Assembly: GCA_021735655.1 (NCBI GenBank)
Contig: JAIPGM010000011.1
Coordinates: 1-56,791 of the forward strand
DNA: 56,791 nucleotides
DNA from: Candidatus Omnitrophota bacterium
Lineage (GTDB): Bacteria > Omnitrophota > Gorgyraeia > Duberdicusellales > 4484-171
Direction of reading: 5' to 3'
Below are positions 21,524 to 22,021 of the stretch, piece by piece (positions within the stretch are counted from its first letter, which is position 1; every line of letters starts with the position of its first letter). The position numbers and the translations under genes are program-made. A model generated the notes under the pieces. It worked only from the letters and a program-made list of their open reading frames with translations, searched no databases and was not told where the DNA came from.

Positions 21524-21532
21524 TGGTATAAT
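21524..21532 (+). promoter_or_regulatory. Extended -10 promoter (TGgTATAAT) for the lipoprotein gene; leaderless spacing
   Basis: TG at 21524–25, TATAAT at 21527–32, ATG at 21539 after a 6-nt gap. Confidence 0.5.
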
Positions 21533-21538
21533 TTTCTC

Positions 21539-22021
21539 ATGAAAAGGCTATTTACTTATCTTTTGATTACTCTTTTAGTTTTTAATTCTGGGTGCCATGC
21601 TTTGCGTAAAAAGTTCATTCGTAAGAAAAAAATCGAAAAGGAGCAGGCAGTTTATGTTGATTTCAAAGAGTATCCGACAAAACCTTCACGCGATGCCTAT
21701 ATAGATTATTATATTTTTGTTCGTGGTTGGCTTGATGAATTGTCAGCGGCGCTCAAAAAAGGAATAAGTTATAAAAGGCAGCGTCGAGCCATATCTGAGG
21801 CAATTATGAATGTTGAACAGATAATCTCTTTTTTTAATACTGAAGGCAAAGAAGAGATTTACCCGATATATGACGACTTACTTTATATCCGTCAACAGGT
21901 TGAAAAAGCTCCTAACATGAGTGAGGTGAGACGTAATTCCCTTATTCGTAGGATCGAGCATCTTAAAAGGATATTTGAGAAAGATTTTAACTATAGCGAT
22001 GCTGAGCAATGGATGAGTTGA
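21539..22021 (+). CDS. Hypothetical lipoprotein
   Basis: Signal peptide ending in a lipobox-like VFNSGC. No recognisable catalytic motif. Confidence 0.5.
   Translation: MKRLFTYLLITLLVFNSGCHALRKKFIRKKKIEKEQAVYVDFKEYPTKPSRDAYIDYYIFVRGWLDELSAALKKGISYKRQRRAISEAIMNVEQIISFFNTEGKEEIYPIYDDLLYIRQQVEKAPNMSEVRRNSLIRRIEHLKRIFEKDFNYSDAEQWMS

Follow-up and report, generated by a model that had tools for sequence, protein, structure and literature searches.

Results

Genes and promoters at the locus

The window, by which we mean the whole 56.8-kb stretch of DNA analysed here, comes from the MAG of a member of Omnitrophota, a PVC-related candidate phylum of uncultured, mostly very small and possibly host-dependent cells. 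Its GC content is 38%, its strand bias is extreme, with just one gene in about 60 off the + strand, and the GC skew is uniformly positive (0.10-0.25) across positions 1-56791. Three genes are central to this study: truA, the gene of a putative lipoprotein downstream of it, and the gene of an MGDG-synthase/GT28-like glycosyltransferase, called GT28 below (Table 1). The 160-aa lipoprotein is identical to an NCBI entry (locus tag K9L86_07650) and carries an N-terminal signal peptide that ends in a conserved G-C and is kept in all orthologs; the family is found in Omnitrophota alone, and a Pfam search with the protein returned no domain. The GT28 gene is followed on its 3' side by a lipid-A acyltransferase-like gene and then a GT2 gene. 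Upstream of truA lies a divergent pilin-like gene with its own AAGGAGG Shine-Dalgarno (SD) sequence; read-through into truA is thus impossible, and truA is the first gene of its transcription unit. The nadA promoter sits 3' of a strong terminator-like hairpin (54518-54548). Orthologous and related loci that were compared with the window (W) are given L numbers.

Table 1. Promoter elements and genes discussed in the text, with their positions in the window
Feature	Position	Strand	Remarks
truA promoter, TTGACT (20692-97)-17-TATAGT (20715-20)	20692..20720	+	10/12 matches
truA	20729..21475	+	ATG 8 nt past -10; predicted 5' UTR 0-2 nt (near-leaderless)
-35-like hexamer TAGCCT, lipoprotein promoter	21504..21509	+	weak (3/6 positions); 17 nt 5' of -10
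Extended -10 box TGGTATAAT, lipoprotein promoter	21524..21532	+	TG at -15/-14, one base before hexamer
6-nt spacer tttctc, lipoprotein gene	21533..21538	+	predicted transcription start A21539
Putative lipoprotein gene, 160 aa	21539..22021	+	starts MKRLFTYLLITLLVFNSGC; predicted leaderless
-35 hexamer TTTACC, GT28 promoter	48238..48243	+	TTT-CC invariant in 9 orthologous loci (A2)
Extended -10 box TGGTATTAT, GT28 promoter	48258..48266	+	TG at -15/-14; conserved in A2
MGDG-synthase/GT28-like glycosyltransferase gene	48273..49388	+	ATG 6 nt past -10; predicted leaderless in window genome and L082 only
nadA promoter, TTGACA-16-TATAAT	54585..54612	+	12/12 matches; 16 nt before ATG 54629
Third intergenic TGGTATAAT	56635..56643	+	~150-nt leader, AAGGAGA at window edge; counter-example

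Several other features of the window were recorded. The pilin-like gene (20017-20637, - strand; N_methyl motif and PilW_C) lies between asd and truA, an interval that is a variable insertion spot: the gene is present in L104 and L105, adjoined in L105 by an IS110-family transposase, it is expanded to a multi-gene block in L102, and it is absent in L002, L011, L106, L110 and L111, where asd adjoins truA. Before mraZ (27942-28379), positions 27880-27941 hold TTGACA-17-TATATT followed by three GTGG(A/C) repeats with 10-nt spacing (GTGGAATAAAGTGGAGTAAAGTGGA); the repeats look like the classical MraZ operator of the dcw cluster, and the arrangement is kept in L002, L007, L011, L012 and L013. Downstream of ddl, the last part of the dcw cluster occupies 42955-46882. 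Its three genes are a weak, above-cut-off FtsQ (42955-43764; POTRA_1 and FtsQ_DivIB_C, E about 4e-5), a gene whose sole PDB match is Thermotoga FtsA (43789-44934; E = 0.02), and a 640-aa ORF at the expected place of ftsZ (44960-46882) with no Pfam match, hence no tubulin/FtsZ domain. The division genes here may have diverged, or the locus may lack FtsZ.

Promoters that abut start codons

Directly before the lipoprotein and GT28 genes the sequence reads TGGTATAAT-tttctc-ATG and TGGTATTAT-ttattg-ATG, which bears out the first-pass annotation in its description of an extended -10 box, six nucleotides and ATG at 21524-21541 and 48258-48275. Each gene thereby has its own putative promoter of the sigma-70 type, with a TGnTATAAT-like extended -10 and a weak or moderate -35 element. 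At sigma-70 promoters, transcription usually starts at the seventh nucleotide after the -10 hexamer. With the hexamer ending exactly 6 nt before ATG, the predicted start site in both genes would be the A of the start codon, where the -1/+1 pairs are C/A (lipoprotein) and G/A (GT28). The primary transcript would then open with AUG and be translated as a leaderless mRNA, for which SD pairing would be impossible.

The truA gene differs in its promoter. The same annotation had given it an extended -10 box close to the ATG; the closeness holds (TATAGT-N8-ATG), but the box is not an extended -10, since its TG dinucleotides stand at -16/-15 and -14/-13, off the canonical -15/-14. Its -35 and -10 are of the conventional kind, and a leader of 0-2 nt would be expected to behave like no leader at all. 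For nadA, the reported perfect TTGACA/TATAAT pair with an SD-less leader of ~10 nt was recovered with a leader of about 9-10 nt. Thus, a -10 box that ends 5-9 nt (typically 6-8) before the start codon is found at the lipoprotein and GT28 genes (N6) and at truA (N8); nadA, at N16, lies outside this range and is not leaderless.

The start codons of the lipoprotein, GT28 and truA genes are all ATG and are correctly placed. Mis-annotated starts had been named beforehand as one case that would undo this interpretation; this is not what we found, as orthologs share their N-termini, namely the MK/RK... signal peptide of the lipoprotein, MK[KR]V.I.HIS, which is common to all GT28 loci, and M..NI.LE.EY of truA.

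For the strict pattern TGNTATWAT-N6-ATG, the window has two matches where 0.09 would be expected, and two or more were seen in 1 of 100 shuffles; both matches are gene starts that follow 63-nt intergenic gaps. The looser TGNTANNNT-N6-ATG is not above chance in the window (3 vs 2.0 expected). TGNTATWAT itself has 11 sites in the window, of which three are intergenic (21524, 48258 and 56635). The third of these, with its long leader, indicates that this type of promoter is not tied to leaderless starts. The 56635-56791 segment, ~150 nt with tiny ORFs only and no Rfam match, could represent a small RNA or a long 5' UTR ahead of the next gene. Rfam and tRNA scans of the window returned nothing, so that no riboswitch or leader RNA accounts for these regions. 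A consensus promoter/terminator scan gave the same site counts as shuffled sequence; it is therefore of no statistical use and served for coordinates only.

Two further candidates were set aside. TGCTATTTT-N8-ATG at 46872 was considered as a fourth case and rejected, the gene being internal and overlapping the upstream ORF, with a weak hexamer. ORF 10891 was rejected as an operon-first gene, being overlapped by an rpmF-like small gene. Located at about 10780-10960 in another frame, this rpmF-like ORF has a conserved ...CPFCGYY... motif and runs into the listed ORF 10891-12030, whose TTG at 10891 is thus not the true plsX start.

Conservation of promoters and spacing

Orthologous lipoprotein loci were gathered by a genome scan with truA and by look-ups of homologs. 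TG-TATAAT also stands before the lipoprotein gene in L102, L104, L106, L108, L110, L111, L010 and L012. In an alignment of six lipoprotein upstream regions (A1), the sole invariant columns are a T-tract near -35, the TG, TATAAT and ATG; at the -35 position the orthologs have TAGATT followed by this T-tract. The distance from -10 to ATG was tabulated for 16 distinct orthologs, of which 14 bear the promoter, 8 of them with a gap of 6 or 8 nt. The gap is 6 nt in W, L004, L006, L007, L102 and L104 and 8 nt in L011 and L013; it is 20 nt in L108, 34 nt in L111, 47 nt in L106 and L110, and 58 nt in L010 and L012, where TAGGAG stands 9 nt before ATG. The remaining two, L109 (internal to a pil operon) and L002, have no extended -10 of their own. 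The six N6 spacers (tttctc, ttaaaa, ctaaca, ttatca, tctcta and tttcta in W, L004, L006, L007, L102 and L104, respectively) are the same in length and have diverged in sequence. The L104 locus has a hairpin (-28.6 kcal/mol, z = -7.5) that stops 7 nt short of TGATATAAT-N6-ATG, which leaves room only for a promoter that starts at the ATG. At L109 10001 (contig CAZVQU010000002.1, from the genome that also holds L003), a type II secretion/type IV pilus operon (pilM/N/O) precedes the relocated lipoprotein-MBL-xerC-CCA block; the lipoprotein and pilO genes share 4 nt, and the former lacks a separate promoter.

For GT28, a metagenome scan yielded 20 loci, and the promoter TTTACC-17-TGnTATTAT is kept in 9 of them. 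In the alignment of these nine (A2), TTT-CC and the TG-TAT-AT block are invariant, and the alignment collapses past the -10. The window shares its 6-nt spacing with L082 (92% identity) alone. Longer gaps are seen elsewhere: 15-16 nt for L086 and L089, 30 nt for L085, and 45-52 nt for L087, L088, L099 and L101. The orthologs with a GTG start (L088, L097, L099) are all leadered. The promoter is shared but the N6 spacing is confined to W and L082, which suggests that the promoter is old and that the leaderless state is recent and derived in the window's lineage. The leaderless state is not universal in either family, considering this restriction and the leaders of 20-58 nt before the lipoprotein gene in L108, L111, L106, L110, L010 and L012. 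An SD-like motif is found in leaders that follow the conserved promoter, namely before the lipoprotein gene of L010 and L012 (58 nt, TAGGAG) and before GT28 of L101 (80% identity; CAGGAG).

The closest truA loci are all from Omnitrophota MAGs. Upstream of truA, at a gap of 8-10 nt, W, L102, L104 and L108 keep TTGACT-16/17-TATA[GT]T, with TATATT in the latter three, and the more distant truA genes of L002, L004, L006, L007 and L008 have a TATAAT-like box 6-11 nt from ATG. Longer leaders with GGAGG/GAGG precede truA in L106 and L110, and in L011 and L111 the gene appears to be co-transcribed with asd. As a positive control, the same footprinting recovers in these loci the leadered promoters of rbfA (TTGATA-17-TATAAT, ~30-nt leader, AAGGAG) and mraZ (TTGACA-17-TATATT, then the GTGG repeats).

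A separate arrangement was observed in L015, L016, L017, L021 and L052, unclassified MAGs whose truA is about 45% identical. Here a different gene, for a 139-aa membrane protein, lies about 29 nt past truA, preceded by TG[GA]TAAAAT-N7/8-ATG and a conserved ATAGAATATTAG block; it is an independent case of a start that abuts its promoter.

Shine-Dalgarno usage and prevalence

With curated starts, a 4-mer SD core precedes 15 of the 49 internal genes of the window and AGGAG/GGAGG precedes 8 of them, against 11% and 2%, respectively, at random positions; among the operon-first genes, 4 of 10 have an SD. The first-pass annotation held that internal genes use clear AGGAG-type SD sequences. This is right for about a third of them, above chance, and wrong for the rest, and the contrast that it drew with operon-first genes was overstated. 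The other 34 internal genes lack an SD core, which means that SD-less leadered messages can be translated here; as SD is used by a minority, a missing SD is not diagnostic of a leaderless gene. By a crude measure, the SD-like frequency resembles that of gammaproteobacterial control loci and is below that of Firmicutes ones.

A -10 box lies 6-8 nt from ATG in 3 of about 10-11 operon-first genes of the window, a count compatible with a true share of about 5% to 60%; other operon-first genes (purE, pilin, rbfA, mraZ, ftsQ) have leaders with SD. In a first motif histogram, Omnitrophota loci, unlike those of Firmicutes, Flavobacteria or Gammaproteobacteria, had a pile-up of extended -10 boxes at 6-9 nt ahead of ORF starts. 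We rejected this as lineage-wide enrichment, for the pile-up is one orthologous gene sampled many times in truA-centred loci. An independent GT28-centred set (189 kb) had 3 of 20 at 5-9 nt (p = 0.45), with no enrichment. In a gene-first count, which rests on crude start calls and a small sample, a -10-like box lay at 5-9 nt in 13 of 238 operon-first genes (six of the 13 being the lipoprotein gene) vs 26 of 336 internal genes. None of the related sets has its mode in the 5-9 nt bin. Overall, the statistics of -10-to-start distances that had been suggested as a check, run on ~540 kb of related Omnitrophota DNA, gave no excess at 5-9 nt beyond orthologs of the same gene. The broader claim that leaderless mRNAs are frequent in this genome and that operon-first genes are preferentially leaderless is thus not established, with 3 of ~10-11 in the window and no peak in the lineage.

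Discussion

We propose that the transcripts of the lipoprotein and GT28 genes start at the AUG and are leaderless, that truA is near-leaderless with 0-2 nt, and that this is a property of the individual genes; from the sequence comparisons, we put the probability of this reading at roughly 0.65. In other words, the mRNAs of two genes, and less strictly that of a third, probably begin at the start codon. The promoters, and for the lipoprotein gene the spacing in part of the orthologs, are conserved and the shared N-termini fix the starts, thus making leaderless transcription, near-leaderless for truA, likely. The -35, TG and -10 elements are kept while their flanks diverge; this points to selection on the promoters and indirectly supports functional elements rather than chance matches. 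We infer that the promoters fire, that transcription starts at the A, and that translation would use the leaderless transcript. Neither the lipoprotein nor the GT28 gene of the window has a convincing terminator before it (fold z = -0.07 and -0.94, respectively); thus, leadered read-through transcripts may coexist. On this reading, the genome mixes SD-led, SD-less leadered and leaderless initiation, and the leaderless mode is a gene-specific feature.

Such read-through could be the main route, with the three genes mostly expressed from longer transcripts by SD-independent leadered initiation and the -10 boxes acting as minor internal promoters. The lack of terminator-like structures just mentioned would permit it, the neighbours are all co-oriented with gaps of only 63 nt, the SD-less internal genes are necessarily translated from leadered mRNA, and the lipoprotein ortholog of L109, internal and overlapping pilO, is promoterless. 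Against it, TG-TATAAT and the -35 elements persist as the flanking bases change, a sign of selection on the promoters, and the spacing is exactly 6 nt in six genomes; moreover, in L104 and L002 the interval between truA and the lipoprotein gene holds strong hairpins, and truA diverges from its upstream neighbour. We therefore consider this route unlikely. Rather unlikely, too, is a genome-wide regime of the GeneMarkS-2 group C class in which a quarter or more of the operons are leaderless. The share of operon-first genes in the window with a -10 box 6-8 nt from ATG would agree with it, as would the N6-N11 spacing of the truA orthologs in L002, L004, L006, L007, L008, L102, L104 and L108 and the TG[GA]TAAAAT-N7/8-ATG before the 139-aa gene in five loci (L015, L016, L017, L021, L052), but the pile-up at 6-9 nt dissolved into a single orthologous gene, the GT28-centred set showed nothing of the kind, and operon-first genes have the box no more often than internal ones, with the 5-9 nt bin never the mode.

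Chance is very unlikely as the source of these motifs. AT-rich intergenic DNA in a window of this composition does yield TATAAT-like strings beside ATG, and the looser pattern and the consensus promoter counts, both at chance level, as well as the weak AATAAT/GATAAT boxes before internal genes, fit such an origin; the excess of the strict pattern and its retention across orthologs of 43-92% protein identity do not. It is still harder to believe that the true starts lie downstream behind ordinary leaders. The ORF list does offer a TTG at 48270 as an alternative for GT28, but the first residue is common to all orthologs, the N-terminal signal peptide is indispensable to the lipoprotein, the N-terminal strand NILLELEY of truA aligns from residues 1-4, and the MGDG_synth domain of GT28 begins at residue 15.

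A bolder generalization is that Omnitrophota have a mixed initiation regime, in which about a quarter of the units would be leaderless through a TG-extended -10 placed at the AUG, most other genes would be SD-less, and the same promoter-gene pairs would flip repeatedly between leaderless and leadered states, the latter with SD. We hold this as a speculative and rather doubtful extension. It draws on GT28, where N6 at 92% identity gives way to a 45-nt leader at 80%, and on the lipoprotein gene, with N6/N8 vs 20-58 nt. If it were true, the clade would be a natural series for the gain and loss of leaders.

Our preferred, gene-specific reading has consequences of its own. Gene callers that rely on SD can misplace starts in such genomes; promoter-abutted starts fix the N-termini of these proteins, and leaderless-aware annotation is needed for Omnitrophota MAGs. 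It also places an uncultured PVC-related lineage among the bacteria that probably have leaderless genes, a lineage in which one conserved promoter serves leadered and leaderless genes of close relatives alike. In the literature that we searched, no study linked leaderless mRNAs or SD usage with Omnitrophota/Omnitrophica.

Comparison with known systems

Extended -10 (TGn) promoters of the sigma-70 type are known from E. coli galP1 and from many Gram-positive promoters. The lipoprotein promoter shares with them the TG one base before the -10, which would compensate for a poor -35 (TAGCCT, 3/6). However, the extended -10 is a class of promoter and is silent on leader length, as the ~150-nt leader behind the 56635 site illustrates.

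A further parallel is with experimentally supported leaderless genes, whose geometry is the same. In the GeneMarkS-2 work, operon-first genes have a Pribnow box 6-8 nt from their start (Lomsadze et al. 2018, PMC6028130), and Deinococcus ORFs are preceded by a -10 motif at a distance of 6-7 bp (Zhong et al. 2025, PMC12340547). With this TA-led or group C arrangement of Actinobacteria and Deinococcus-Thermus, our genes share a -10 box 6-8 nt before the starts of presumed first genes and the lack of an SD, with ribosome-binding sites on other genes. The extent differs: in those phyla 20-50% of genes or operons are involved, backed by dRNA-seq, whereas the window has two or three genes in 57 kb, recognized from sequence. 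Group C also expects ribosome-binding sites on internal genes, an expectation with which the window agrees weakly (15/49). In low-GC genomes, the box takes the form TAtAAT with a TG peak before it (Zheng et al. 2011, PMC3160421). The Lactococcus/Streptococcus and Mycoplasma variant resembles our case in low GC (38% here), in TG plus a full TATAAT-like box, in a weak -35, and in an ATG that follows directly; it differs in phylum, and truA has a -35/-10 pair without TG. Taken together, these comparisons of sequence support the placement of the lipoprotein and GT28 genes, and approximately of truA, in the bacterial leaderless (TA-led) class by testable features. Textbook examples of this architecture, interpreted in the same way, come from Actinobacteria, Deinococcus-Thermus and some low-GC Firmicutes; thus, the arrangement is already known in bacteria, and it is the lineage, not the mechanism, that is new.
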